Source: Calditrichota bacterium
GTDB taxonomy: Bacteria > Electryoneota > AABM5-125-24 > Hatepunaeales > Hatepunaeaceae
Reading direction: 5' to 3'
Assembly (NCBI GenBank): GCA_018644935.1
Contig: JABGPL010000002.1
Span: 20,139 to 84,138, forward strand
Length of the DNA: 64,000 nucleotides
Shown here: positions 4,186 to 19,270 of the stretch, piece by piece
How the letters are laid out: every line of letters starts with the position of its first letter
Numbering within the stretch: the first letter of the stretch is position 1
Program-made: the position numbers and the translations under genes
The notes under the pieces: model-generated
What the model was told of the DNA's origin: nothing
The model's input: the letters and a program-made list of their open reading frames with translations, nothing else
Database searches by the model: none

Positions 4186-5022
4186 TTATTTTATCGCTTG
4201 AATCCCTAATGTAATTGTTTCATCAGACGTTTCAAACTTGACCAAATAGTTGCCTGCTGCTAAATTATCTCCATAGATAGGCATGGAGTATCTTCCTTGA
4301 GACTGATAATTATTCACCAGCTTTTCCACCAACCTCCCCGCGGAATTATACATATTTGCCATCACCCAACCCGGTTTGCCGAGAGTGTATGCCAATGTTG
4401 TCGAACTGTTGAACGGATTGGGATAATTCTGTAGAATTCTGAAACTCTGGGGTAAGGCTTTGGTGTTTTCCTCCACCTTCAATGGATCATTGAAACGGAA
4501 TATTTTGAAGGAGCTCTGATCGGCGACGTACACAATGTCATGTTCAACAAAAACACTCTTCATAAATCCGGGCTCATAGGTGTTCCAACCGGGAAAACGA
4601 TAATGTCCGACAATCTCTGGATTTTCCGGATCACTGACATTTATAACTTCCAGTCCGGCATTCCCGACCAAAAAAGCGTGATTATCTTCTACATAAATAT
4701 CCTCAAGGGAGTGTCTAAATTCGAGCGTACCTCTATTCAATGGATTAAGGGAATTTGAAACATCAAAGATATGCAATCCGCTGCTGTTCATAAATTCTGA
4801 CTCGACAACATATAGTGTATTATCTACACATTCAACAGCAACGCCATCTCCCGGAAGGTCAATATTATCAACTTTCTCCAGCTCTGAGATGTTTACGGTT
4901 GCTACTCCCCAGAAACCCGTTGCAACGAAGGCATAATTGCGTTTAACTGCTATATCCAGTGGCTCACCATCAGTCCTGATCCAGGTGTTATTTATCAATT
5001 CTAATGTACTGACACATTTCAT
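4186..5022 (-). CDS. LVIVD-repeat beta-propeller protein with T9SS C-terminal domain; no N-terminal signal peptide, possibly truncated
   Basis: Four LVIVD-like repeats (YAFVATGFWGVATVNISE, NTLYVVESE..GLHIFDVSN, NHAFLVGNAGLEVINVSDPENP, DIVYVADQSSFKIFRFNDP). C-terminal YPNPFNSSTTLAYTL...GNYLVKFET motif. AGGAGT RBS before the ATG, but the N-terminus MKCVSTLELINN is not a signal peptide. Confidence 0.55.
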   Translation of the reverse strand: MKCVSTLELINNTWIRTDGEPLDIAVKRNYAFVATGFWGVATVNISELEKVDNIDLPGDGVAVECVDNTLYVVESEFMNSSGLHIFDVSNSLNPLNRGTLEFRHSLEDIYVEDNHAFLVGNAGLEVINVSDPENPEIVGHYRFPGWNTYEPGFMKSVFVEHDIVYVADQSSFKIFRFNDPLKVEENTKALPQSFRILQNYPNPFNSSTTLAYTLGKPGWVMANMYNSAGRLVEKLVNNYQSQGRYSMPIYGDNLAAGNYLVKFETSDETITLGIQAIK

Positions 5023-5661: not shown

Positions 5662-6714
5662 TTGGAGTATCTTTTGAACCGAATGAGTATCAGTCTGTTA
5701 AGTATTATCCTTTTGCTGTTTTTGGCAGAATCCGGCTACTCCTGGTATAGTAACCCTTATATCGAAAAAGCCAACCTCGATTTTCTCTTAATCCAACCCA
5801 ACAACCGAGCCTTAGGCATGGGAAATGCCTTCGTTGCCCTCGCTGATGATGCCTCTGCGACATGGTGGAATCCGGCGGGATTAGTGAAAACAAAATCTTC
5901 TGAGGTGATGATTTCCCATACCTTCGAAGTGCCGCCGCCCATTGTTGATTGTTTCGACCACAGTTATCTTTTTATTGCACGAACAAAACCGCTCGATGAA
6001 TCTACCGTGATTGCCTTAAGCGGAGTTCAGCATTTATGGGGGCATACAGAAAGACGATGTGAGCTTAATTCTGGTCAGAGCTTTAATCAATGGGATTATT
6101 CCGTGGCTTTTTCCTATGGAGTTAAAATCAATAAACAGTTCGCCACGGGACTTTCCGTAAAATATATAAACAGCCAAAAAGAAAGTGGGGGTGAATTAGC
6201 ACAAATCAAGCATCTCGCTTTAGATGCTGGAATGTTGTATAATACTGATCAATCTTCATCTTTTAAACACTCATTTGGATTGGTAATACGCAATATTGGA
6301 CCAAAATTCAGATATGGTGACAAGGAAGAATTCAAATCATTACCAACCAATCTCAATGTGGGATATGCATTAACCGCCATATCGAGAGTTGGACCTACAA
6401 ATGTTTTGTTTGATATAAATAAACGTCTGAACAAATTACAGATGGATACATTTTTTCGGAACTTCACTTATCATATGGGGATTGAAACATGGTTGGATGA
6501 TGTATTCGGAATTCGCGTTGGACAGTGGTTTGACAATATAGAGAGAGATTCGACTCTCTCACTTGGAGCTTCTCTCCGGATAAAGAAGCTAATTAAAACC
6601 AAAGAAGTTCAAATTGATTTTTCGCGCTATTTTCCCGGAAGGAAGCTAACCGGATACTCCAGTGTAGGCAAGTATGCATTTTCACTTGGCATTAGCCAAT
6701 CTGCGAGTAGTTGA
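5662..6714 (+). CDS. FadL/PorV-like outer-membrane beta-barrel protein (paralog 1 of 5)
   Basis: Signal peptide, then NRALGMGNAFVALADDASATWWNPAGL. This matches the FadL/OmpP1/TodX N-terminal motif ([25 protein letters not shown] in E. coli FadL). Amphipathic beta-strand pattern throughout. The true start is probably MSISLL near 5686. Confidence 0.55.
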   Translation: MEYLLNRMSISLLSIILLLFLAESGYSWYSNPYIEKANLDFLLIQPNNRALGMGNAFVALADDASATWWNPAGLVKTKSSEVMISHTFEVPPPIVDCFDHSYLFIARTKPLDESTVIALSGVQHLWGHTERRCELNSGQSFNQWDYSVAFSYGVKINKQFATGLSVKYINSQKESGGELAQIKHLALDAGMLYNTDQSSSFKHSFGLVIRNIGPKFRYGDKEEFKSLPTNLNVGYALTAISRVGPTNVLFDINKRLNKLQMDTFFRNFTYHMGIETWLDDVFGIRVGQWFDNIERDSTLSLGASLRIKKLIKTKEVQIDFSRYFPGRKLTGYSSVGKYAFSLGISQSASS

Positions 6715-6972: not shown

Positions 6973-8088
6973 CTACCGATCCAACACCAACCTGAATCCC
7001 ACACAATCGCAACTCCAATCGGGATCGTTCTGGGCTCTTTGAGCGGAGCGATGGTACCTCTCATTCATGTCGTATGCTCCTCCTCGTCTTACGCAATATC
7101 CATTACTTCCTTCGTCTACCCAGGGTGATCCGTCATCGGGAGCATTTTCATAATTCTGATGCCAGCTGTCCTCACACAATTCCCAAACATTACCACTCAT
7201 ATCATATAGTCCCCAGGCATTCGGCAGTTTGGTGCCAACTTCCCTGAATCTTCCCCAGGAACTATATTCAGGAAAGTTAATGTACATGGGATCATCTCCC
7301 CAATAAAACCTTGTGGTTGTCCCGGCACGACAGGCATATTCCCACTCCGCCTCCGATGGAAGGCGATAATTGAGGGCGGTTCGAGTCAGAAATTGAGAAT
7401 GAATCTCGTCCCATGAGAAATTATATGCAGTCTGATTTTCGCCTCGACCATTATACCATCGTCCTTGATTTTCCTCACCTGCAACAGCTTCCCACTGTGA
7501 TTGAGTCACCTCATATTTTCCCATCCAGAAACCACTTTTGAAGGTCACCTCATGACGTGGGCGTTCAAAATCATCACCATCCTCATCAAATCCAGTTCCC
7601 ATTGTAAATGAACCGGGTGGTATCCAGACCATTGTAATATTGACGCCATCAACCAATTCAAATCCAAGGGCTTCGCCAACCTGAAAATCTCTGGTGATAA
7701 AACTGAAAAGTGGAGTTTCTGTCAGGTGATCATGATCATCTCGGGCTACTATCCGCCAGAAATATTGGGTGTTGTGTTCCAGAAAGGGGAGTAAATAAGT
7801 CGTACTGTCCTGATTTTTATTGATTGCGTGGGGAGTATTCAACCCTTCAATGAGAGTCTCGCCAAAATAGACATCATATCTCAACGGATCACCTTCAGGA
7901 TCGGAACACGACCAACTCAGCTTTACATCTATGGTTTGTTCGGTCGATCCATCCATAGGGAATATGGGGGAAGGGACTGATGGTGCTGAGTTTGTGGGTC
8001 TTGTTATGCGATCTTTCTCGCAACCGATGGAGAAGATGATCACAATTGCAATTAGGAAAATATGTTTCATCGTGACTCCAAATATCAT
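6973..8088 (-). CDS. FGE-sulfatase (SUMF1/formylglycine-generating enzyme-like) domain lipoprotein
   Basis: Lipoprotein signal (IFSIGCEK). C-terminal 230 aa carry GFWMGKYEVTQ...YRLPSEAEWEYACRAGTTT..YWG...GLYDMSGNVWELCED...RGGAY...DCVGFRLV, hallmarks of the FGE-sulfatase domain. An N-terminal FN3-like region precedes it. Confidence 0.75.
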   Translation of the reverse strand: MIFGVTMKHIFLIAIVIIFSIGCEKDRITRPTNSAPSVPSPIFPMDGSTEQTIDVKLSWSCSDPEGDPLRYDVYFGETLIEGLNTPHAINKNQDSTTYLLPFLEHNTQYFWRIVARDDHDHLTETPLFSFITRDFQVGEALGFELVDGVNITMVWIPPGSFTMGTGFDEDGDDFERPRHEVTFKSGFWMGKYEVTQSQWEAVAGEENQGRWYNGRGENQTAYNFSWDEIHSQFLTRTALNYRLPSEAEWEYACRAGTTTRFYWGDDPMYINFPEYSSWGRFREVGTKLPNAWGLYDMSGNVWELCEDSWHQNYENAPDDGSPWVDEGSNGYCVRRGGAYDMNERYHRSAQRAQNDPDWSCDCVGFRLVLDR

Positions 8089-8126
8089 CTATAACAATGC
8101 TCGAAAGTATTTTCGTATTATTAACC

Positions 8127-8192
8127 GGAGTAGCGAAGCTTGCTTCGCGCTATAAATGTTATGGAAAGGCGCGAAGCAAGCTTCGCTACTCC
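8127..8192. repeat. Palindromic element, family B (24-bp inverted arms GGAGTAGCGAAGCTTGCTTCGCGC separated by 18 nt)
   Basis: Perfect inverted repeat read directly. The arms share the GGAGT terminus and the internal-hairpin architecture of family A but have a different palindromic core. It sits in a divergent intergenic region. Confidence 0.5.
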
Positions 8193-8428
8193 AGGCACTG
8201 TTATATATACAAAATAGTACTTCTGAAACACAAATGCAAGTTGGACCTGTTTATGTTCTTCAAACATCTCACCCTATTGGAAACAACAGTTTAATTATAT
8301 CAATCGCAAAAAGATAGAACTTCATCTTGACTTAAAGTTAGGCATGTCATATCTTGTTTGCATATCCAAACTTTATTTGAACGGTAAACAATTTGTAAAA
8401 ATAATACACATTTCAAGGAGGTAGAGAA

Positions 8429-9661
8429 ATGAGGATTTGGGTTCGGTTTTTAGTTCTATTTATTGTTGTAGGGACTTCAGTTATCGGTGGGGATGCTTTC
8501 GCGTTGTCGAGCAAAAATCTCTATGAACTTAAATGCGGCAGGTGTCATGTTGCGTTTGAACCATCGGAGTTCACGGCACAGGAATGGCCGGGTATTGTCC
8601 GGTCTATGAAAGCTCAGGCTGCACTGACCGCTTCGGAAACTCAAGAGATAACGGAATATCTCGTTAATGCAAGCCAGGGTGAAGACTCAGAACACTCTGG
8701 AAACCGCCCAAGCTTTGGCGGGTATTTGTATACTGAATATTTCCAGTCTCCAAAAAAAATCAAGAACTTCGATATACATTATCTGGCTTTTCACATATCC
8801 GGCTGGGCAAGTGATAATATATCCTATTTTGGTGAGTTTGAGCTTGAACATGGTGGTAAAGGTGAAGATACTTTTGTCGAGCAGGCATTTCTCGACTGGT
8901 GGGTCAGACCGACAACAGCTGTAAAGATCGGTGCAATGCTGACACCGTTCAACCGCTTCGATGAATTCCACGATCCACTGATGAATTACCTCATTACCCG
9001 TCCACAGGTTTCGCGCGAACTCGGTGTGAGTGCGTGGAAAGAGGTTGGTGTTGACCTGCACGGATATTTCAATATTGCAGATACTGGCGTTCTATCTTAC
9101 GACCTATATACGATAAATGGTCTTGGGGAAGGTGATAATTTACGTAAGAGCCGTCAATACCGTGACAATAATGAGTCGAGGGCTTTCGGGGGAAGAGTTA
9201 ACTACGTCTTCAAGGACATGCTTGAGGCTGGAGCATCAATGTATCAGGGTGCCTGGGACGATGAAGCCGACTACAACTTGTCGATGTTTGGCGCGCATCT
9301 GATGATGCAGACTCCATTTGCGGAAATATTCGGTGAATATACCCAGGCAACCTCCGAAAACCCCGGTGATGTCGGTGACGGCGAAATGTCCGGATATTTC
9401 ATTCAAGCTTCACGACTGTTCAATGGCGCATATCGCCCGACTGTTCGCTACGGCATGCTGGATTACCTCGACGAAGGCGACAAACGCGGTCGCGATTCCG
9501 ACAATGGCAACAAGGATTTAACAGAACTGGCATTAGGTTTGTCTTACTATCCGACATCCAAAGTCGCTTTCAAATTTGAATATACGATATTCACCGAGGG
9601 CGACCGGATGGAAGAAGTTGACAACAATCAGATTGGGCTTCAGGCGGCGGTGAAGTTTTAG
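8429..9661 (+). CDS. Outer-membrane beta-barrel (porin-like) protein with an N-terminal CxxCH heme-binding motif
   Basis: Signal peptide. A single CGRCH motif sits within a ~70-aa N-terminal domain (ELKCGRCHVAFEPSEFTAQEWPGIVRSMKAQA). It is followed by ~330 aa of alternating hydrophobic pattern rich in Y/G/D and ending in a C-terminal Phe (AAVKF), as in OM beta-barrels. Confidence 0.45.
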   Translation: MRIWVRFLVLFIVVGTSVIGGDAFALSSKNLYELKCGRCHVAFEPSEFTAQEWPGIVRSMKAQAALTASETQEITEYLVNASQGEDSEHSGNRPSFGGYLYTEYFQSPKKIKNFDIHYLAFHISGWASDNISYFGEFELEHGGKGEDTFVEQAFLDWWVRPTTAVKIGAMLTPFNRFDEFHDPLMNYLITRPQVSRELGVSAWKEVGVDLHGYFNIADTGVLSYDLYTINGLGEGDNLRKSRQYRDNNESRAFGGRVNYVFKDMLEAGASMYQGAWDDEADYNLSMFGAHLMMQTPFAEIFGEYTQATSENPGDVGDGEMSGYFIQASRLFNGAYRPTVRYGMLDYLDEGDKRGRDSDNGNKDLTELALGLSYYPTSKVAFKFEYTIFTEGDRMEEVDNNQIGLQAAVKF

Positions 9662-9896
9662 ATTTTGAACCTGTGCTGGGGGAGTATAATTATTCTCCTC
9701 TGTGCAATTTTTATGTTCACAATTTCAAGGTGATTTATGATCGCCTTGAAATTGTCTCCTCTTTCCATAGTGTCGTCAAATTGGAGCGACCTGTTTCAAA
9801 TCCCCAAAAATAGTCTCTATCTATACGCCTCTATAGACATGCCTTCTATTTAAGATTATATTTAGAAAGCTATGTGTTTTTATGGTTTAACTTGAA

Positions 9897-12764
9897 GTGA
9901 GAATTGTCATGCTAAAAAGAACTCTATTTTTCGCCGTGATTATAGCAATCACAGCATCCCAAGTGCTTGCCCTAAACTTTGATCCCCCCTTAAATGAGGG
10001 GGTTGAGTTCCCCGTTACGAGAGTTGACGAAGTTAGTGAGGTCGTAATGATGGTTATGGAAAACGATGATCGTCGGCCTTCAAGAATTTTGTTCGGAGAA
10101 TTTCAAAATCAGGTATTCAGTGTTAATCCAGCACAATTTCAAATTGAGCCAGGTCAGCGGATTGAGGTAACTTTCACATTTGAACCTCGAGAGGGTGGAG
10201 TGGTAGAGGAAAGGGCCAGGGTTACAATTGCGACAGCGAACGGGAATATGGAAGTGAGGGAGTACCCGATTAGCGGTGAAGGATTTGCCGGTTTTCCTGA
10301 AATTCGAGTTGACCCAATGGATATTGAGTTGGCACTTGGTGCACTGGGTGAGCATGTTGAAGAGATCGTGTCTATTTCAAATGGTGGACTTGCGGATCTG
10401 GAATTTCAGATTGAATTAGATGAAGATGTTGAATGGCTATATGTTGAGCCAATGCAGAGTGTTGTTGAACCTGATGAAAGGATGGAACTGACTGTATCCA
10501 CCACAGATTTTGTGCCGGCGCAGGGGGAGTACTTAACCAGAATCCGTATCCACTCAAACGATCCTGAACAGGAATTAGTTGAAATGACAGTGCAGTTTAG
10601 TGTGGGTTTTGAACCGACACTGACATTAGATCCGGGTATGATCGAAGAACAACTCGGCATAGATGCAAATGTAGAGATCGCCATTGAAGCAACAAACACA
10701 GGCGATGCGGAATTAGCGTTTAATATTGAGCGGAAACTTATCGGAGATCAAAACGCCGCCCCGTGGGATGAAAGATATAATGTGAATTATCAGGAACACC
10801 TGGAAGACAATGGTTTGCAGGGAGTGGTATTTGCTGAAGGTTCCTTTTTCGTAGCCAGTTCAAATGGAAATGGTGAAAGGGGGAAGATCTACGAGTTAAC
10901 ACCCGAGGGTGAGGTCGTAAATGAGTTCGACCAGTTTGTCAATTCCCGTTATGGAATGCGTGATTTAGCCTATGATGGAAATCTGATGTGGGGTTTGGAT
11001 AGTGGTGTTCTATATGGATTTACCACTGCAGGTGAATTGGAAACAACAATTGAAGTTCCCGATAATCTCAGTGTCAGATGTCTCGCATATGATCCGGACA
11101 ACTCCATTTTCTGGCTAGGCAATATCACAAATGACTTTTTCGCAGTCGATCTTGAAGGAAACTTGATTCGAACCGTAGACAGAAACCGGGAACTCCGAGC
11201 ATATGGACTGGCGTACTGGGGGGATGATCCGGATGGTTATTGCCTTTATGCAACAACTCCCGGGGTTGAGCAGGACATTACCATTAGTAAAATCAACACC
11301 GAAAATGGGGACTTTGAAATTGTTACCGAATTATCCTGCGGAAGTACTCGTCCGAGTGGGATAGCCATCACGAATAGATTTGATGCACTAAGTTGGGTGT
11401 TGGTCGCTCTTGTTCAGACTCCGGATCGCGTAGCAGTTTGGCAGCTCGACTCCAATCTCGACTGGTTTACCATTGAACCGGAAAATGCTGCGCTTGAAGC
11501 AGGAGATTCGCAAGACCTTACTGTCACATTAAATACAACTGGACTTCCGGAGGGCGAGTTTGAAGCTCAGTTCGTCCTCACTTTGGACAACGCCGGTGGT
11601 CAGGTAATTCTGCCAGTTGCCCTTACTGTTCAGGCTGGTGGAGTTCAGGAACGGGTAATTGAATTGAATGTAGGATGGAATATGGTTTCAACTAATGTCG
11701 TCCTTGAGGATGATGATATTTTTGTAATTATGAGTGAACTGGTTGAAGCTGAGCAACTTCTCCTAATGAAAGATGGATCAGGAAGATTCTACAGCCCTGC
11801 ATTTGGTTTTAACAATATTCCCGGTTGGGATGTTGCATCGGGGTATTTGATTAAAATGAACGATCCAAGCGAGCTCACTTTAACCGGAATGCCTGTTATG
11901 TTCGATGAGCCTATTGATCTCGTGGAAGGTTGGAATATGACTGCATATTATCCGCGTGTACCTGTGGCTGATATGATTGCATTATTCGGAATTGTCGACC
12001 AGCTTATCATGGCAAAGGATGGGGCGGGACGATTTTACTCCGTCGATTTCAATTTCAGCAACATGGGTGACATGGTAGAAGGGAGCGGTTACCAGATAAA
12101 GGTCGAAGAGGATGTGGTGCTGATCTATCGACTCGAAGAGGAGGGTCAGCTAAACATGACTTCACCTCTGAGATCAGAAAATGATCTCCTAAGGCTATCT
12201 GACTCAAACATGAGTGTATTGGTATACTGTGAAAGTTCCTATTCAGGCAGTGTGAGCGCGTATTCGGGTGACTTGTTGGTGGGTACTGGTGAAGTAGTAA
12301 ACGGAACAGGCGGATTGGCAGTCTGGGGTGATGACCCAACTACACCAGAGAAAGAAGGTCTTAAGACCGGTGAATCATTTGAACTCAGGTTCGGAAATCA
12401 ATCCAGTTTCAAATCATATGAAACCTTACAGGGAAATGGATTGATATACGAGACCAATGCATTTACCGCCCTGAAGATAGAACAAAACCAGAACCTCCCC
12501 CAGGATTACTATCTATCCGAAACCTACCCAAACCCGTTCAACAACCGCACAACAATAAGCTACGGATTGCCGGAATCGGGTGAGGTTTCCATAGGCATTT
12601 TCGACCTGAACGGCAGATCAGTAGAAACCTTACTGAACCAGCAGATCACAGCCGGTCACCACTCAATTACCTGGAATGCTGAAGACATGGGATCAGGGAC
12701 TTATCTGGTTAAGATGCAGGCTGGTGAGTTTAGCAACATCAGAAAAGTTGTTATGATCAAATAA
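9897..12764 (+). CDS. Large secreted protein (955 aa) with T9SS C-terminal sorting domain
   Basis: Signal peptide MLKRTLFFAVIIAITASQVLA. C-terminus YPNPFNNRTTISYGLPESGEVSIGIFDLNGRSVETL...GTYLVKMQAG matches the T9SS CTD. Confidence 0.6.
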   Translation: MRIVMLKRTLFFAVIIAITASQVLALNFDPPLNEGVEFPVTRVDEVSEVVMMVMENDDRRPSRILFGEFQNQVFSVNPAQFQIEPGQRIEVTFTFEPREGGVVEERARVTIATANGNMEVREYPISGEGFAGFPEIRVDPMDIELALGALGEHVEEIVSISNGGLADLEFQIELDEDVEWLYVEPMQSVVEPDERMELTVSTTDFVPAQGEYLTRIRIHSNDPEQELVEMTVQFSVGFEPTLTLDPGMIEEQLGIDANVEIAIEATNTGDAELAFNIERKLIGDQNAAPWDERYNVNYQEHLEDNGLQGVVFAEGSFFVASSNGNGERGKIYELTPEGEVVNEFDQFVNSRYGMRDLAYDGNLMWGLDSGVLYGFTTAGELETTIEVPDNLSVRCLAYDPDNSIFWLGNITNDFFAVDLEGNLIRTVDRNRELRAYGLAYWGDDPDGYCLYATTPGVEQDITISKINTENGDFEIVTELSCGSTRPSGIAITNRFDALSWVLVALVQTPDRVAVWQLDSNLDWFTIEPENAALEAGDSQDLTVTLNTTGLPEGEFEAQFVLTLDNAGGQVILPVALTVQAGGVQERVIELNVGWNMVSTNVVLEDDDIFVIMSELVEAEQLLLMKDGSGRFYSPAFGFNNIPGWDVASGYLIKMNDPSELTLTGMPVMFDEPIDLVEGWNMTAYYPRVPVADMIALFGIVDQLIMAKDGAGRFYSVDFNFSNMGDMVEGSGYQIKVEEDVVLIYRLEEEGQLNMTSPLRSENDLLRLSDSNMSVLVYCESSYSGSVSAYSGDLLVGTGEVVNGTGGLAVWGDDPTTPEKEGLKTGESFELRFGNQSSFKSYETLQGNGLIYETNAFTALKIEQNQNLPQDYYLSETYPNPFNNRTTISYGLPESGEVSIGIFDLNGRSVETLLNQQITAGHHSITWNAEDMGSGTYLVKMQAGEFSNIRKVVMIK

Positions 12765-13897: not shown

Positions 13898-16800
13898 CTA
13901 CCTGACCGCATAATACTTCCCTTCCTGATGATGAAACACAACCGCAGAAACCGAGCTTTCCGGACTCATCATCATACCTTCGGTCAGTGAAACACCTATG
14001 CGTTCTGGTTTTAGGAGGTCGAACAATGGGCGTTGGTCAGCGAGGTCGGGGCACGCGGGGTAGCCGAAGGATAGGCGAATGCCTCTGTATTTGGTTTTGA
14101 ACTGGTAGTCGAGATCGGTATCCTGCGGATCGGGGATTCCCCACTCCCGGCGCATTCTTATATGTACCCACTCGGCGGTGGCTTCGGCGAGTTCGATGGC
14201 TACAGCCTGCAGGATCATTGAGTCGAGTAACCTGCCCTCGGCTCGCATTTCTGCGGCGCGATCAATAGTGTCTGTTCCTGATGTAGTTACGAATAGACCA
14301 ATGGAGTCTCCGCCCAATCGTGGTGGACGAAGCCAATCTGCTGCACAGGTGCCTGTGTCTCCCTTTTCACGGGGGAAATTGAAGGTTACAGTGTCTATTG
14401 ATCCCGGGACAGTGACTTTGATTATATCGGTGCCGGGGCTTGCCGGGAACCAGCGGTAGAGTGCTCGGGGGGAAAGAATTCCCGCTTTTCGACCTTCCGC
14501 TGCAACCGTTTTTATCCGTTTCTGGAGGTCAATCAGCTTTGTGTCGTTCGGGTCTTTCATTCTTGCTTTTAACTTCGTGACACCGAGGTGTTTTCCGAGC
14601 AGCATCTGGGGGTTGATCAGGTCAAAGACTTCGTCAAAGGGGAGCTCCTTAAGGATGTGCTCTTCGTAATCGGGTGGTTCGGGCACTTCGCTTTCTATCC
14701 ACACGGAGGAGACAGGCTCTTTCTTTGCTTGAGGTTTCGCTGGTTTTACAGCTTTCGCTTTTTCCGTCCGTTTTACTGCATCAGCTTGTTGTTGAGTGAT
14801 TAACTCTGCGAGTTTTTCCGGCACAACTATTTTATTAGCCAGACCCAGCCCCTGCATTGCGTCGGATGCGTAGAAGGTCGGGGATTCATATGCGGGAGCT
14901 ATCTGGGTTTCAACAAATTTTTTAGTTAATGCAGCTCCACCGACCAGCATCGGCAGCTTGATCCCGGCAGCATTCAAATCCTCAGCAGTTGCTACCATCT
15001 GATGCGCACTGCGAACAAGTAAACCCGACAGCCCGATCATTGCGGGGTTATGTTCAGCAACAGCTTCAATCAGCTTTGCCGGAGGAACCTTTATCCCAAG
15101 GTTGATGATTTCAAAACCGTTGTTTGACAGTATCATGTCAACGAGGTTCTTGCCAATGTCGTGGACATCCCCTTTGACTGTCGCGATCAACATCTTACCC
15201 TTGATTGCCACTGACTCACCCGGTGGGAAGTACGGGCGGATGAAATCGACGGCGGCTTTCATGACCTCCGCCGATTCGAGAACTTCGGCTACAATAAGAC
15301 GATTATCCCCGAACAGTGTCCCGACCTCATCCATCCCTGCCATGAGTGGTCCGTTAATCAGATCAAGCGGACTCATCTTTTCGAGCATTTCAGCGAGGTT
15401 GATCTCCAGTCCTTCCCGGTTGGCTTCGACAACAGCTCTCGATACCTTCTCAGGAGTGGTAAGTTCTGCCCATTCGTCTTCGGTCGATTGGGGTGATACA
15501 TCCCGGAAGCGTGTGGTGAAATCCATGATTGATTTATTGTCACCGGTCAGGAGAAGGTTTTCTGCCAGTTTTCGGTCTTCGTCAGAAATGGTTGGGTATC
15601 GTTTCAAACCCTCTGTGTTCACGATTGCCAGATCAAGCCCGGCTTTTGCGCATTTATACAGAAAAACGGAGTTGACTACTTCACGACCTGCGGGAGGTAG
15701 TCCGAATGATACATTTGAAATCCCGAGTAATGTCAGGCAGTTTGGGAATCTTTCCTTTATCGCTTTGGTGCCCTGTATGGTTGCTTCGGCTGTGCCGAGA
15801 TATGCAGGATCGCCAGTTGCAGCTGGGAAGACCAGGGGATCAAAGATTATGTCACCTTCGGGAATTCCGAATTCTGTAGTGAGTATTCCATGGATTCTCT
15901 CAGCGATCTCCAGTTTGCGCTCAACTGTCGTCGCCATGCCCTGTTCAGGATCTTCGTCGATAACACCACAGACGAGTGATGCACCATATTTTCGAGCCAG
16001 TTCCGCAACGTAGCGCAGGCGTTTTCCACCATCCTCGAGGTTGACGGAATTTATTGCTGGTTTTCCGCCGATATTCTTCAGCCCGGCTTCGACAACCTTG
16101 GGGTCAGTAGTGTCCATCATTATGGGGACACGTACCTTGCGAAGTAGCGGACGAAGCACTCCTGTAAAATCTTCGAGCTCGTCCCGGTCGGGATTGGCAA
16201 CGCACAGATCAATGACCATTGCGCTCTTCTTAACCTGCTTACGGCCAATTTCGGCAGATGCATCCCATTTTTCCTGTGAGACGAGGCGTTTAAATTTCCG
16301 GCTGCCGATAGTGTTCGTTCTTTCCCCGACGAAAACGGGACGGTTGTCATCTTCAACGACCATTGCCTCAGCTCCAGCAAGGGCAGGAAAACGTCCGTCT
16401 TTAACCGGTATCCTCGGAGGAATGCCACGAATAACTGAGCAAACCGCACTGATATGTTCGTTTGATGTTCCACAACAACCACCGATGATGTTTACAAATC
16501 CGTCGTTGGCAAACCGCTCGATTATTTTGCTGAACACTTCAGGAGTATCTGTATACTTACCCTCTGTATTCGGCAACCCGGCATTGGGCCAAGCGGACAC
16601 AGGGAAACGTGATATCTGTGAAAGTGTTCGCAGGTGGTCTGTCATTGCTGCGGGACCAGTTGCACAGTTTAAGCCGATAGAGAGGAGATCAAAATGGCAG
16701 ATGGAGTGGTATAAAGCCTCGATGTTCTGCCCGGCGAGCATCGTCCCGTTGGGTTCAATGGTCACAGAAACTGAGACAGGAGCTTCGCGATCAAGATCTT

Positions 16801-17368
16801 TCTGAGCTGTCTCAATCCCGAACAATGCTGCTTTCAGGTTAAGCGTATCCTGAGTTGTCTCGAGAAGCAGTATATCGGATCCTCCTTCGAGTAGGCCTGA
16901 AGCATAAATTCGGTATACTTCAACGACTTCATCAAACGTAATTCCACCAGTAACAGTTATCGGTTTGGTTCCTGGTCCCATTGATCCGGTAACAAATACG
17001 CGTTTGTCCATTGCATATTCAGCAACAGCTCGATTTGCCAGTTGTGCGGATTTGCAGGCGATTTCTCTTGAACGCTCAGCAATACCATATTCAGCCAGAA
17101 CTGTTGGCGAGCCGTTGAAGGTGTTGGTGAAGATCAGGTCTGAGCCAGCTTCAATGTATAAGCGATGTAGTTGAACAACCATGTCCGGGGCATGAACATT
17201 AAGCATTTCATTGCACCCGCTGAACTCCTCCCCTCCGAAATCTTCATCTGTCGGATTCATCCATTCGAGGGCGGTTCCGGTGGAACCGTCAGTGGCAAGG
17301 ATTCGCTCTTGTAATAATTGTTTCAGAAGAGCTTTATTTTTGATATCTTCTTGTCGATTAATTGCCAT
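13898..17368 (-). CDS. metH: Cobalamin-dependent methionine synthase
   Basis: 1156 aa. Homocysteine-binding domain (ILATDGSTGTALE...GGCCGT), pterin-binding domain, B12-binding domain (DVHDIGKNLVDMILSNNGFEIINLG) and a C-terminal AdoMet activation domain. Confidence 0.9.
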   Translation of the reverse strand: MAINRQEDIKNKALLKQLLQERILATDGSTGTALEWMNPTDEDFGGEEFSGCNEMLNVHAPDMVVQLHRLYIEAGSDLIFTNTFNGSPTVLAEYGIAERSREIACKSAQLANRAVAEYAMDKRVFVTGSMGPGTKPITVTGGITFDEVVEVYRIYASGLLEGGSDILLLETTQDTLNLKAALFGIETAQKDLDREAPVSVSVTIEPNGTMLAGQNIEALYHSICHFDLLSIGLNCATGPAAMTDHLRTLSQISRFPVSAWPNAGLPNTEGKYTDTPEVFSKIIERFANDGFVNIIGGCCGTSNEHISAVCSVIRGIPPRIPVKDGRFPALAGAEAMVVEDDNRPVFVGERTNTIGSRKFKRLVSQEKWDASAEIGRKQVKKSAMVIDLCVANPDRDELEDFTGVLRPLLRKVRVPIMMDTTDPKVVEAGLKNIGGKPAINSVNLEDGGKRLRYVAELARKYGASLVCGVIDEDPEQGMATTVERKLEIAERIHGILTTEFGIPEGDIIFDPLVFPAATGDPAYLGTAEATIQGTKAIKERFPNCLTLLGISNVSFGLPPAGREVVNSVFLYKCAKAGLDLAIVNTEGLKRYPTISDEDRKLAENLLLTGDNKSIMDFTTRFRDVSPQSTEDEWAELTTPEKVSRAVVEANREGLEINLAEMLEKMSPLDLINGPLMAGMDEVGTLFGDNRLIVAEVLESAEVMKAAVDFIRPYFPPGESVAIKGKMLIATVKGDVHDIGKNLVDMILSNNGFEIINLGIKVPPAKLIEAVAEHNPAMIGLSGLLVRSAHQMVATAEDLNAAGIKLPMLVGGAALTKKFVETQIAPAYESPTFYASDAMQGLGLANKIVVPEKLAELITQQQADAVKRTEKAKAVKPAKPQAKKEPVSSVWIESEVPEPPDYEEHILKELPFDEVFDLINPQMLLGKHLGVTKLKARMKDPNDTKLIDLQKRIKTVAAEGRKAGILSPRALYRWFPASPGTDIIKVTVPGSIDTVTFNFPREKGDTGTCAADWLRPPRLGGDSIGLFVTTSGTDTIDRAAEMRAEGRLLDSMILQAVAIELAEATAEWVHIRMRREWGIPDPQDTDLDYQFKTKYRGIRLSFGYPACPDLADQRPLFDLLKPERIGVSLTEGMMMSPESSVSAVVFHHQEGKYYAVR

Positions 17369-17371
17369 TGT

Positions 17372-19270
17372 TTACTCCTGTGGAACTAAAATCTTGCGAC
17401 CGTAATCGCTTTCACGAAAGATGTCTATTACTTGAAGTGCCAACTCCACTCGCCCGAAAGGCGGCATAATGTAAGCGCCTTGAGCTTTCGGAGCTGATTT
17501 GATTAGAGTTTCGGCCGCTATTTCAACACCTATTTTTGCTGCTTCTTCGCGGTCGGTCACAGGCTTCAATCGATCTCTTATCGGTTGGGGTACTTCCATG
17601 CCAGGTACTTCGTTATGGAAGAACTCGGCGTTTCTAAAACTCGCCAGAGGCAATATCCCGACTAAGATCGGAACCTCCGGAATATCTGCTTTTTCTACAA
17701 AATGGAAGAAGATTTCCTCGTTGAATACTGGTTGTGTCAGAACATAACATGCACCGTTATCGATCTTTCGATGCAAACGGTCTATTTCAAGATCAAGATC
17801 AAGTGCCCCGGGGTTCGCACCACATCCAAGCAGGAGTGCTGTCGCATTTGGTATTGGGTTCCCGGCGAGGTCGAGGCTGTGGTTCAGGTTATCACCAATG
17901 TGAATCAAACCGATAGCGTCAACGTCGAAAACCGCAGTCGCCATTGGATAATCCCCTAATTTGGGGGGATCTCCCGTTATGCATAGAATATTATTGATGC
18001 CCATTACTTCAGCACCAAGTAAATCGGACTGAATGCCGAGAATATTGCGATCGCGACAGGTGTAATGAGGGAGGACGTCCATGCCTGTTTCTGCTTGTAT
18101 AGACTGAGCGAGTACCATTGCAGAAAGTCTTGCTGAAGCACGAGGACCATCGGGAATATTTACAATGCTAACGCCATTTTCCTGAAGTTTTTTTACATTG
18201 CGGATTATCCGCTTTATCGAAGGGCTACGCGGTGGATTCAATTCAACAGAAAAAACAAACTGATTATCATCAAATGACTTTGCAAGCTGTGACATTTCCC
18301 GATAGGGTTTTATAAAGTCAGTTCTAAAATCGCGAGGTTTAATTTTAACAGCAACCGGAATTTTTACTTTTGACAGCTCAGGCGATATCGCCCGAATAGC
18401 CGCTTCCATTGCTGAAATATGCGCTGGAGTCGAACCACAACACGCACCAACAAGTTTAACACCGTTCTGGATGAGACGTTTCGTATATTCAGCGAAATAT
18501 TCTGGAGTCGAACGGGTAATAAGACGGTCTTCAACCCATTCGAGTTCACCAGCGTTGGGCTGGATTATAATCGGATGATCAGTGTTCTCAAGCAATACCT
18601 GTGATGCTTCAAGCAGCTTATATGGACCGATAGAGCAGTTAATGCCGATTACATCTACATCGAGGTCATGAAGTTTTGCTGCAAACAGGGGGAGTGTCGT
18701 TCCATAGGCACTTTCGTTCCACTCTGAGAGTGTAAATTGCGCAATTACTGGGAGATCACAAACTTCGTGAACTGCCTTAACTGCCTGCACCAATTCTCCC
18801 GCAATTGCCATAGTTTCAATGATAATAAGGTCAACTCCACCCTCAACGAGACCTCGAGCCTGCTCGGCGAAGGCTTCTTTGGCATCTTTAATATCCAGGG
18901 TACCGAGTGGCTTGAGTCTTCTGCCGAGAGGTCCGATGCATCCGGCTACGAAAGCATCATGTCCGGATTTTTCCATGGCGCTTCGAGCAATTTTTGCTCC
19001 GGCTTTGTTGATTTGTACAACAGTTTCAGCCAGACCGTGGCTTGAGAGTTTATGCCGATTTGCCCCATAGGTGTTGGTGGAGATTATTTCAGCTCCTGCC
19101 CGGAGGTAATCGGAATGCACCGCTGAGACAATTTCCGGACGGGTGGTATTCAACTCATCGTAGCATTGGTTAGTATAAACACCACGGGAGTATAATTCGG
19201 TTCCCATCGCACCATCAAGTAATAATGGTGCACCTTCCAAGCGTCTTCGAAAGTCTTTTGTGTTTTTCAA
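17372..19270 (-). CDS. yitJ: Bifunctional homocysteine S-methyltransferase / 5,10-methylenetetrahydrofolate reductase (YitJ-like)
   Basis: N-terminal LLLDGAMGTELY...GACCGSTPAHI homocysteine methyltransferase domain. C-terminal MetF-like domain (SVELNPPRSPS...). Apparent TTG start. Confidence 0.75.
   Translation of the reverse strand: MKNTKDFRRRLEGAPLLLDGAMGTELYSRGVYTNQCYDELNTTRPEIVSAVHSDYLRAGAEIISTNTYGANRHKLSSHGLAETVVQINKAGAKIARSAMEKSGHDAFVAGCIGPLGRRLKPLGTLDIKDAKEAFAEQARGLVEGGVDLIIIETMAIAGELVQAVKAVHEVCDLPVIAQFTLSEWNESAYGTTLPLFAAKLHDLDVDVIGINCSIGPYKLLEASQVLLENTDHPIIIQPNAGELEWVEDRLITRSTPEYFAEYTKRLIQNGVKLVGACCGSTPAHISAMEAAIRAISPELSKVKIPVAVKIKPRDFRTDFIKPYREMSQLAKSFDDNQFVFSVELNPPRSPSIKRIIRNVKKLQENGVSIVNIPDGPRASARLSAMVLAQSIQAETGMDVLPHYTCRDRNILGIQSDLLGAEVMGINNILCITGDPPKLGDYPMATAVFDVDAIGLIHIGDNLNHSLDLAGNPIPNATALLLGCGANPGALDLDLEIDRLHRKIDNGACYVLTQPVFNEEIFFHFVEKADIPEVPILVGILPLASFRNAEFFHNEVPGMEVPQPIRDRLKPVTDREEAAKIGVEIAAETLIKSAPKAQGAYIMPPFGRVELALQVIDIFRESDYGRKILVPQE

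Follow-up and report, generated by a model that had tools for sequence, protein, structure and literature searches.

The stretch analysed here (the window) comprises 64,000 nucleotides of a Calditrichota bacterium (assembly GCA_018644935.1, contig JABGPL010000002.1, positions 20,139 to 84,138 of the forward strand). Positions 8429 to 9661 of the window hold a complete gene whose product combines a signal peptide, a predicted monohaem c-type cytochrome module and a porin-like beta-barrel in a single chain. An identical database entry exists, the hypothetical protein HN356_00375 of a Calditrichaeota metagenome-assembled genome (MAG). The original prediction, made from the sequence alone, had placed an open reading frame (ORF) with a signal peptide and a single CxxCH motif (CGRCH) at exactly these positions, and our analysis agrees. 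The coding region has the following features.

8429 to 9661, plus strand: cytochrome-porin fusion gene, complete, ATG start, 410 amino acids plus stop.
8429 to 8503, plus strand: Sec-type signal peptide, residues 1–25, MRIWVRFLVLFIVVGTSVIGGDAFA, no lipobox Cys, predicted from sequence features.
8504 to 8671, plus strand: predicted monohaem class-I c-type cytochrome module, residues 26–81, related to the first haem domain of DHC and to the C-terminal domain of TorC.
8534 to 8548, plus strand: haem-attachment motif C36-G-R38-C39-H40, with C36, R38, C39 and H40 invariant; predicted thioether attachment and proximal His ligand.
8585 to 8608, plus strand: W53 and M60, both invariant; M60 is the proposed distal (sixth) ligand.
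8672 to 8710, plus strand: Ser/Gly/acidic linker, residues 82–94, variable.
8711 to 9658, plus strand: predicted 16-stranded outer-membrane beta-barrel, residues 95–410, C-terminal ...AAVKF, from AlphaFold2, Foldseek and Pfam.
8834 to 8857, plus strand: EFELEHGG motif at the end of strand 3 and in predicted loop L2, with E136, E138, E140, H141, G142 and G143 invariant.
8942 to 9037, plus strand: predicted loop L3, residues 172–203, tPFNRFDefHdPlmNyliTRPQvsRElGvSAW, with two short helices; topology inferred from standard porins.
9119 to 9178, plus strand: predicted loop L4, residues 231–250, GLGeGdnLRkSRQYrDNNes, common to barrel-only relatives.

Basic residues at the N-terminus, a hydrophobic core and a cleavage-type site (A-F-A) mark the signal peptide, which is the least conserved segment of the protein (mean column conservation 0.31). 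No CxxCH other than this CGRCH (residues 36–40) occurs in the roughly 19,750 residues encoded by the 54 ORFs called in the window, and a chance expectation of about 0.0008 per 410 residues follows from the local frequencies of Cys and His. Among 5.8 billion clustered proteins, 255 homologues were retrieved, and the best 120 of these are 49–100% identical to the window protein and nearly all about 410 residues long. The family is tightly conserved, with identities of 49–75%. CxxCH stands at the same place in 113 of the 120, that is, in all 113 full-length homologues. In the seven remaining entries the sequence starts only at Met60, a conserved internal Met ('MKAQAAL'), and for this reason they look like shortened gene calls. 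The haem motif is also kept in every complete locus of the close family. C36, R38, C39, H40, W53 and M60 are invariant in an alignment of 58 sequences; M60 and W53 are the nearby Met and Trp that had been singled out as possible partners in haem coordination.

A related observation concerns a Zixibacteria MAG (Dive100_bin1.50, locus L021, 10031–11185), in which a stop codon lies directly upstream of a still-encoded CGRCH and the gene is called from Met60. This locus is a pseudogene or an assembly error, and it accounts for 'CxxCH-less' database entries of 349–360 residues.

Profile and structure comparisons place the N-terminal region among known cytochromes. Pfam DHC (PF09626) matches residues 32–87 with 30.4 bits against a gathering threshold of 22.2, covering profile positions 1–60 of 116 only, and the NCBIfam model TIGR02162 gives a local match to the TorC C-terminal region (E 9e-8, 31.8 bits, profile positions 325–381 of 387). 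A profile of residues 21–95 compared with PDB sequences finds 3u99 (E 1.7e-7) and 2fwt/2fw5 (about 6e-5) over 58–64 profile positions. When the module is modelled by itself with AlphaFold2 (pLDDT 81), the result can be laid over 3u99 and 2fwt with a root-mean-square deviation of 1.8–1.9 Å over 58 columns, and Foldseek assigns these two structures probabilities of 1.00 and 0.99, with all remaining PDB chains at 0.25 or below. In the full-length model, helices span residues 28–39, 53–59, 61–64 and 68–81. Sequence and predicted structure identify the N-terminal region as a DHC-type cytochrome c domain, and the same comparisons make it well supported that the module binds one haem, attached via C36 and C39.

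The original prediction had allowed for an incidental CxxCH in a haem-free N-terminal region that is simply a plug or a linker. Haem attachment is indeed a prediction from sequence and models, but the motif, the Met and the Trp are invariant across phyla, the region is homologous in both sequence and fold to solved c-type cytochromes, the motif would be expected by chance far less than once per protein, and a distant relative, P0221, shows a Met-to-His swap at the ligand position. We rejected an incidental motif on conservation and homology and regard it as extremely improbable.

The second axial ligand can be proposed by comparison with DHC, in which the sixth ligand is His51, located 17 residues ahead of a 'YL' signature in the last helix (PMC2909971). 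M60 lies 16 residues ahead of Y77-L78, and the DHC 'NHFG' insert is deleted at that spot. Since M60 is invariant, matches the spacing of DHC His51 and is replaced at equivalent spacing by His in the distant fused relative P0221, it is the candidate distal ligand, and H40/M60 (His/Met) is the likely axial ligation. The linker that follows the module has a mean conservation of 0.33 and indels in the alignment, and it is modelled with pLDDT of about 65 in the full-length prediction and below 50 in the domain prediction.

The remainder of the protein had been described as an outer-membrane barrel on the grounds of its strand periodicity, its richness in Gly, Tyr and Asp, and its terminal Phe, and structure prediction bears this out. 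The full-length AlphaFold2 model (mean pLDDT 87.4, pTM 0.85) has 16 beta-strands from residue 95 to residue 409; Gly, Tyr and Asp make up 10.4%, 6.6% and 7.9% of the barrel, and the last residue is Phe410. Against the PDB, Foldseek retrieves OmpC, OmpK36, OmpF and OprP at E values of 1e-13 to 1e-11 and TM-scores of 0.59–0.70, with OprP (2o4v) at 1.3e-11. Two Pfam thresholds are marginally passed, Porin_4 (PF13609; 27.8 vs 27.0 bits) and Porin_O_P (PF07396; 23.0 vs 20.9 bits).

Conservation within the barrel (mean 0.71) is concentrated in particular loops. L4 scores highest of all segments (0.87) and L3 follows closely at 0.85, its motif being common to the barrel-only relatives P0127, P0129 and P0131, and EFELEHGG ranks with both loops among the best conserved parts; the least conserved parts are the periplasmic turns (mostly 0.38–0.51, with the two-residue T2 at 0.70) and the linker. 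By analogy with other 16-strand porins, L3 would be the constriction loop. E136, E138 and E140 alternate along their strand and, judged from strand parity, would lie on the polar, lumen-facing side. To estimate pore charge, we combined the model strands with the hydrophobic/polar alternation of each strand, which is a crude approach; on this approximation the lumen-facing strand residues include 13 Asp/Glu, 8 Lys/Arg and 3 His, and outer loops L5–L8 carry 16 Asp/Glu against 4 Lys/Arg. These modelled properties agree with a constriction that holds a specific binding region of the cation type, and with a loosely tethered haem module; they argue against an anion ladder like that of OprP.

Relatives of the window protein form two groups, fused and barrel-only. 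Among contigs from one genome per species, searched with EFELEHGG as a family-specific pattern, fused members share 45–75% identity and always carry CxRCH. Their hosts are Calditrichota, KSB1, Gemmatimonadota/Longimicrobiales, Zixibacteria, Eisenbacteria, Glassbacteria, Aminicenantes and unclassified MAGs. Database names are 'hypothetical protein' and 'porin', apart from one automatic label, 'Dihaem cytochrome c/Phosphate-selective porin O and P', and our literature search, which does not prove absence, found no relevant description of a DHC-type cytochrome fused to a porin. In 1.84 billion representatives, an exhaustive profile search reaches 6,142 clusters at E <= 1e-3, 1,094 at 1e-10 or below and 85 at 1e-30 or below. 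CxxCH is absent from 135 of the 148 best representatives; these 135 are barrel-only, often with a coiled coil at the N-terminus, and they have the family loop motifs PF(G/N)xF(N/D)xxHxP and (N/D)xR...R(Q/x)...DNNxNKAxGGR. P0232 is, with P0221, a further fused variant.

Other arrangements of the same parts were also observed. P0241 (839 residues) carries four to five tandem DHC-type haem modules followed by the same kind of barrel in one chain, and tandem module arrays exist without a barrel in P0149 (six modules) and P0211 (three modules).

One locus holds a natural split version of the fusion. At L048 (9920–11238), a barrel-only orthologue in which the signal peptide runs straight into strand 1 is followed by a 117-residue lipoprotein with an LVAGC lipobox and the same haem module, in which the attachment motif is CX3CH (CGTRCH) and the Trp and Met are kept. 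The pair lies directly downstream of feoB-feoA. Because barrel and module are here encoded by separate, adjacent genes, with the module on a lipoprotein, the split ties the two functionally and puts the module on the periplasmic face of the outer membrane. Together with standard porin topology and the C-terminal Phe, the lipoprotein form leads us to infer an outer-membrane location for the window protein, with its haem module facing the periplasm.

The split also bears on a simpler explanation, in which a general diffusion porin does nothing more than anchor a periplasmic electron carrier, pore and haem being functionally unlinked. A flexible, unconserved linker and poorly conserved periplasmic turns suggest that there is no fixed docking surface, the split version anchors its haem module as a lipoprotein, and many relatives of the barrel have an unrelated coiled coil in place of the cytochrome; all of this would suit a mere anchor. 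Yet barrel conservation, with near-invariant L2–L4, is far above that of a general porin, the genes of the split locus remain adjacent, and varied redox partners recur beside the same barrel lineage, from which we argue for functional coupling. We therefore hold simple anchoring to be distinctly unlikely.

Gene neighbourhoods were compared at 47 non-redundant loci of fused members. In two Glassbacteria loci, a DtxR-type repressor, the fused gene, OprB, FeoB and FeoA follow one another in that order; at L013, DtxR and FeoB are directly upstream of the fused gene, and at L006 a FUR gene lies 40 nt upstream. Rrf2 regulators are found downstream twice. A Pfam census of nearest neighbours gives Fe_dep_repr_C 4, Fe_dep_repress 3, FeoB_N 2+2, FeoA 2 and Rrf2 2. 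Multihaem neighbours occur at 11 of the 47 loci, and L034 and L017 have neighbours with 4–19 haem motifs. The most elaborate arrangement is in Aminicenantes (L039, 3437–11221), where co-oriented genes encode a c7-type pentahaem protein, a molybdopterin oxidoreductase (819 residues, with Fe4S4 and MGD-binding domains), a 4Fe-4S protein, NrfD, a multihaem class-I cytochrome c (four CxxCH) and, last, the fused protein. L030 and L050 repeat this order; L029 and L032 have a comparable multihaem operon, likewise co-oriented. An operon of this type looks like a complete quinol-to-outer-membrane module.

Such an operon raises the question of whether the pore serves something other than iron. The barrel might admit an oxyanion or another respiratory substrate while the haem module serves as an electron-donating dock for a periplasmic molybdoenzyme, in the way that the C-terminal haem domain of TorC serves TorA. 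The match of the haem module to the TorC C-terminal region, the marginally passed Porin_O_P threshold and the fused gene at the end of an operon with a molybdopterin oxidoreductase, a 4Fe-4S subunit and NrfD all point this way. Set against them, only part of the family has the molybdopterin operon, the cut-off of the TorC model is far from reached (31.8 vs 478 bits), the pore lining is net acidic without an OprP-type arginine ladder (an approximate result), and the partners of the barrel lineage (FeoAB, Fur, DtxR, imelysin/DHOR and FMN_bind/ApbE) are linked to iron. A substrate porin of this kind appears unlikely to us.

The imelysin/DHOR and FMN_bind/ApbE partners belong to the barrel-only relatives, which are found in conserved operons (L054–L080, for example L071 9848–14720, L068 9057–12589 and L059 9749–11837). 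Among 24 of them, with one upstream and three downstream neighbours considered, the di-haem oxidoreductase DHOR occurs 10 times, imelysin 9, FMN_bind 9, ApbE 8 and FUR 4. Operons in Bacteroidota and Poribacteria comprise the porin, imelysin and DHOR, to which Tenacibaculum adds another di-haem protein; in Verrucomicrobiales the order is FUR, porin, FMN_bind, ApbE, and in Myxococcota porin and FMN_bind. Operons of imelysin and DUF1111 are Fur-regulated and have been implicated in iron uptake (PMC3143127), and a link to iron assimilation has been drawn for extracytosolic systems of FMN_bind and ApbE (PMC8238504). We found no porin partner reported in the literature for either system, and the word 'porin' occurs 0 times in PMC8238504. 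The barrel lineage is iron- and redox-linked, and the pattern is even stronger around the barrel-only relatives than at the fused loci.

With recurrent iron and redox neighbours, the split pair at L048, the partners of the barrel lineage and the character of the pore all in view, we propose that the fused protein is an iron-redox porin, supporting Feo-linked assimilation in some lineages and, in others, completing a quinol-linked cytochrome chain at its outer end. This is a reading by gene context and analogy, and we give it about even chances. The acidic, His-containing barrel lining and the near-invariant L2–L4 would admit iron through the outer membrane, and the tethered haem at the periplasmic mouth would exchange one electron between pore-borne iron and periplasmic carriers. 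Electrons could flow in either direction, with Fe(III) reduction or Fe(II) oxidation as the outcome. In lineages with linked fur, dtxR or feoAB, the protein would help the cell to assimilate iron, supplying FeoB with Fe(II) or keeping iron in that form; in Aminicenantes and some Gemmatimonadota, where the gene comes last in a quinol-oxidoreductase/multihaem operon, a respiratory electron path would end with it at the outer membrane. The window copy stands alone, and any role there would follow by orthology.

Several points weigh against this proposal, the first being that the support for function consists entirely of gene neighbourhood and analogy. About 30 of the 47 fused loci, the window included, have no iron or cytochrome genes nearby, and no Fur box is recognisable in the promoter region of the window gene (by the E. 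coli consensus, which may not be that of the host). A haem with His/Met ligation usually has a fairly high potential. Such a potential would suit Fe(II) oxidation at least equally, so the chemistry does not favour an assimilatory reductase. One haem, held on a flexible tether in the periplasm, is not enough to move electrons across the membrane. Finally, the molybdopterin enzyme in the Aminicenantes operon could indicate a substrate other than iron.

The surroundings of the gene in the window add little to this question. Three signals flank it.

8327 to 8405, plus strand: two overlapping sigma-70-like promoter candidates from a consensus scan, TTGACT-17-TATCTT (8327–8355) and TTGAAC-17-AATAAT (8377–8405).
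8415 to 8421, plus strand: Shine-Dalgarno AAGGAGG, 7 nt before the ATG, read from the sequence.
9719 to 9755, plus strand: terminator-like hairpin with a 17-bp stem, 58 nt past the stop codon, a consensus match only.

The promoter scan is weak (7 sites in the region vs 4.0 ± 2.0 in shuffles), terminator-like sites number 2 against 1.7 expected, and the best Fur-box match, 11/19, equals the background in shuffled sequence. The promoter-like hexamers upstream and the terminator-like hairpin downstream suggest that the cytochrome-porin gene is a monocistronic unit. Its neighbours encode a PorV/PorQ-like protein, a lipoprotein with an FGE-sulfatase domain, proteins sorted by the type IX secretion system (T9SS), and MetH; they provide no functional link, and no iron or cytochrome genes lie near the window copy.

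Other features of the window deserve brief mention. Around the gene, three proteins with a T9SS C-terminal sorting domain and a PorV/PorQ-family outer-membrane protein are encoded at 23–1945, 4186–5022, 5662–6714 and 9897–12764, surroundings that fit a member of the FCB group (Calditrichota). Between the gene and the divergent FGE-sulfatase lipoprotein gene (6973–8088, minus strand) lies a perfect 25–27-bp inverted repeat (8125–8196), consisting of GGAGTAGCGAAGCTTGCTTCGCG and its reverse complement around a 16-nt loop, which is present as a single copy in the window and has a folding energy of -52 kcal/mol (z-score -11). The repeat may act as a regulatory operator or as a bidirectional insulator, or it may be what is left of a mobile element. 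Further along, at 13898–19270 (minus strand), a B12-dependent MetH (1,156 residues) adjoins a 632-residue fusion of homocysteine S-methyltransferase and methylenetetrahydrofolate reductase. From 26000 to 64000 almost all ORFs are on the plus strand and GC skew is positive throughout, with the cumulative skew rising from about 0 to 2.1, which suggests a single long co-oriented replichore segment.

The closest known protein in layout is Cyc2, which oxidises iron in Acidithiobacillus, Zetaproteobacteria and Gallionellaceae and in which a signal peptide and a single CXXCH precede a porin of 16 strands resembling OprO/OprP (Keffer et al. 2021, PMC8406198). Its diagnostic motifs are AXPXFAR[Q/K][T/Y] immediately before CXXCH, called unique to Cyc2, and PXL four residues behind it (PMC8406198). 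For comparison, we collected 54 full-length Cyc2 proteins from metagenomes by means of a back-translated signature pattern, so that motif presence in this set is by selection. These proteins have 362–502 residues (50 of them at least 397), one haem motif each and a C-terminal aromatic residue in nearly all cases, and the spacing FAR[QK][TY]-x3-CxxCH-x4-PxL is constant.

The window protein shares a good deal with them. It has the Cyc2 layout of a signal peptide, a single CXXCH, at least 365 residues and a 16-strand OprP-like barrel, and the likeness extends to the Sec type of the signal peptide, the N-terminal position of the haem motif, the length of 400–500 residues, the C-terminal aromatic, the presumed periplasmic N-terminus and the link to iron redox chemistry and periplasmic cytochromes. 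The haem parts themselves differ. In Cyc2, a segment of about 35 residues, AxPxFAR[QK][TY]-x3-CxxCH-x4-PxLNxFGRxFKxxGY, runs straight into the barrel, whereas the window protein has a helical DHC-type domain of about 55 residues plus a linker. AXPXFAR[Q/K][T/Y] is absent from the fused family, which has LYExK directly before CGRCH instead. At the PXL site P45 is nearly invariant (CGRCH-x4-P), and the Leu is not kept, the consensus being PxxY. A proline at that place is common to many class-I cytochromes.

Profile comparisons gave no cross-match. Against a hidden Markov model (HMM) that we built from the 54 Cyc2 proteins, the window protein reaches 9.1 bits and no family member more than 21 bits, and in reverse the family HMM gives each Cyc2 protein at most 4.8 bits. 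With hhalign at full length only the barrels are paired (76% probability, 15% identity), and excised barrels give 1.8%; this inconsistent signal would reflect general porin-level similarity at most. The haem regions align over 14 columns around CxxCH with 26% probability. Cyc2 proteins have no Pfam matches, while the window protein matches DHC, Porin_4 and Porin_O_P, and the genomic partners of Cyc2 are unlike those of the fused family (Feo, Fur, DtxR). Membership in Cyc2 was rejected, given the absent signature, HMMs without a cross-match and unrelated haem domains. By these sequence comparisons the window protein is an analogue of Cyc2 and not a member, with barrels that would be at most distant porin relatives, and its family is a second, separately assembled cytochrome-porin fusion with another haem domain, barrel lineage and set of partners. 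The original prediction had called a haem domain fused to a barrel unusual. As a kind of protein, the fused cytochrome-porin is already known from Cyc2 (PMC8406198), and to that extent the claim does not stand; what is unusual is the origin outside Cyc2, as a second and separate fusion, and we found no published description of the DHC-type version.

An analogue could still share the function of Cyc2. A dedicated Fe(II) oxidase would act on Fe(II) at the outer membrane, either to conserve energy or to hold Fe(II) outside, and the electrons would travel through periplasmic cytochromes to an oxidase or to the quinone pool. The layout matches such an enzyme, with about 410 residues in which a single CXXCH follows the signal peptide and the barrel is OprP-like with 16 strands, and the probable His/Met haem suits the acceptance of electrons from Fe(II). 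The Aminicenantes operon of pentahaem, molybdopterin, FeS and NrfD proteins resembles the alternative-complex-III-type modules that have been discussed in connection with iron oxidisers. 'Cyc2-like' genes have, moreover, been reported in the same phyla by metagenome surveys (PMC9769843; PMC7005843), with FeGenie calls in Calditrichota, KSB1, Gemmatimonadota and Aminicenantes. Against this, the haem domain is not homologous to that of Cyc2 and the signature is absent; the Cyc2 haem segment is continuous with the barrel, whereas here a separate domain sits on a variable linker; co-operonic feoAB and Fur or DtxR indicate acquisition over exclusion; barrel-only relatives lie in operons of the iron-uptake type; and the host lineages have been described as heterotrophs (PMC9769843). 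On balance, we consider a dedicated oxidase doubtful.

Returning to the iron-redox porin, we tentatively put forward a broader model, which we see as possible, not probable. In this model, the fused family and its barrel-only relatives are the missing dedicated outer-membrane component of ferrous/ferric iron uptake in many non-proteobacterial phyla, an iron-specific porin always paired with a periplasmic one-electron partner, be it a fused cytochrome c, imelysin/DHOR or a flavinylated FMN_bind protein. If the model is right, the cytochrome-fused clade is a second, independently evolved iron-redox cytochrome-porin, convergent with Cyc2, and the multihaem P0241 hints at an extension to true extracellular electron transfer. 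In the usual view, Fe(II) reaches Feo by diffusion through general porins (PMC9478572); a conserved porin lineage that recurs beside feoAB, fur, dtxR and periplasmic redox proteins is a concrete, testable candidate for a dedicated iron route.

The family also matters for annotation. Fused cytochrome-porins are currently equated with Cyc2, a marker gene for microbial iron oxidation in metagenomes, and here the same layout occurs with different ancestry in sediment and vent phyla (Calditrichota, KSB1, Gemmatimonadota, Zixibacteria, Eisenbacteria, Aminicenantes). 'Cyc2-like' calls there that are based on architecture or on loose thresholds thus need checking, and iron-oxidation potential may be mis-assigned. 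The fused, split and multihaem versions are, in addition, a natural series in which the recruitment of electron-transfer modules to outer-membrane channels can be studied.

Each part of the protein can be set beside other known systems. With DHC (PF09626; 3u99, 2fwt, 2fw5) the module shares a class-I fold, CxxCH, a conserved Trp and the 'YL' of the C-terminal helix, but it matches only the first half of the profile, so that one haem is predicted against the two of DHC, and it has Met60 in place of the distal His51. DHC is a soluble carrier for SHP, whereas the window module is fused to an outer-membrane barrel. The likeness to TorC/DorC (TIGR02162) concerns their C-terminal monohaem domain, from which a periplasmic molybdoenzyme receives electrons; in contrast to these proteins, the window protein has no NapC/NirT tetrahaem part and no inner-membrane anchor and is not pentahaem, and its 31.8 bits compare with a family cut-off of 478.2. 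With OprP/OprO and the general 16-strand porins (2o4v, 2j1n, 6rd3), the barrel shares its fold and a long L3-type loop; it differs in the N-terminal cytochrome, in a net acidic lining (approximately estimated) instead of an arginine ladder and in far more conserved loops, and it belongs to a large subgroup of its own (the 6,142 representative clusters found at E <= 1e-3).

The redox partners of the barrel-only relatives offer a parallel within the lineage. Imelysin/DHOR (DUF1111) and FMN_bind/ApbE stand beside these barrels, often with FUR, and the fused cytochrome may be their equivalent, although they use other cofactors and folds and are separate proteins. MtrAB, MtoAB and PioAB, as well as Geobacter Pcc, likewise combine an outer-membrane barrel with c-type haem, and the fused genes are sometimes found near multihaem cytochromes. 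Those porin-cytochrome conduits consist of separate polypeptides, with barrels of 20–26 strands threaded by membrane-spanning deca- or octahaem proteins (PMC8406198). The window protein, by contrast, would be one chain with one haem and 16 strands, and with no haem wire crossing the membrane.

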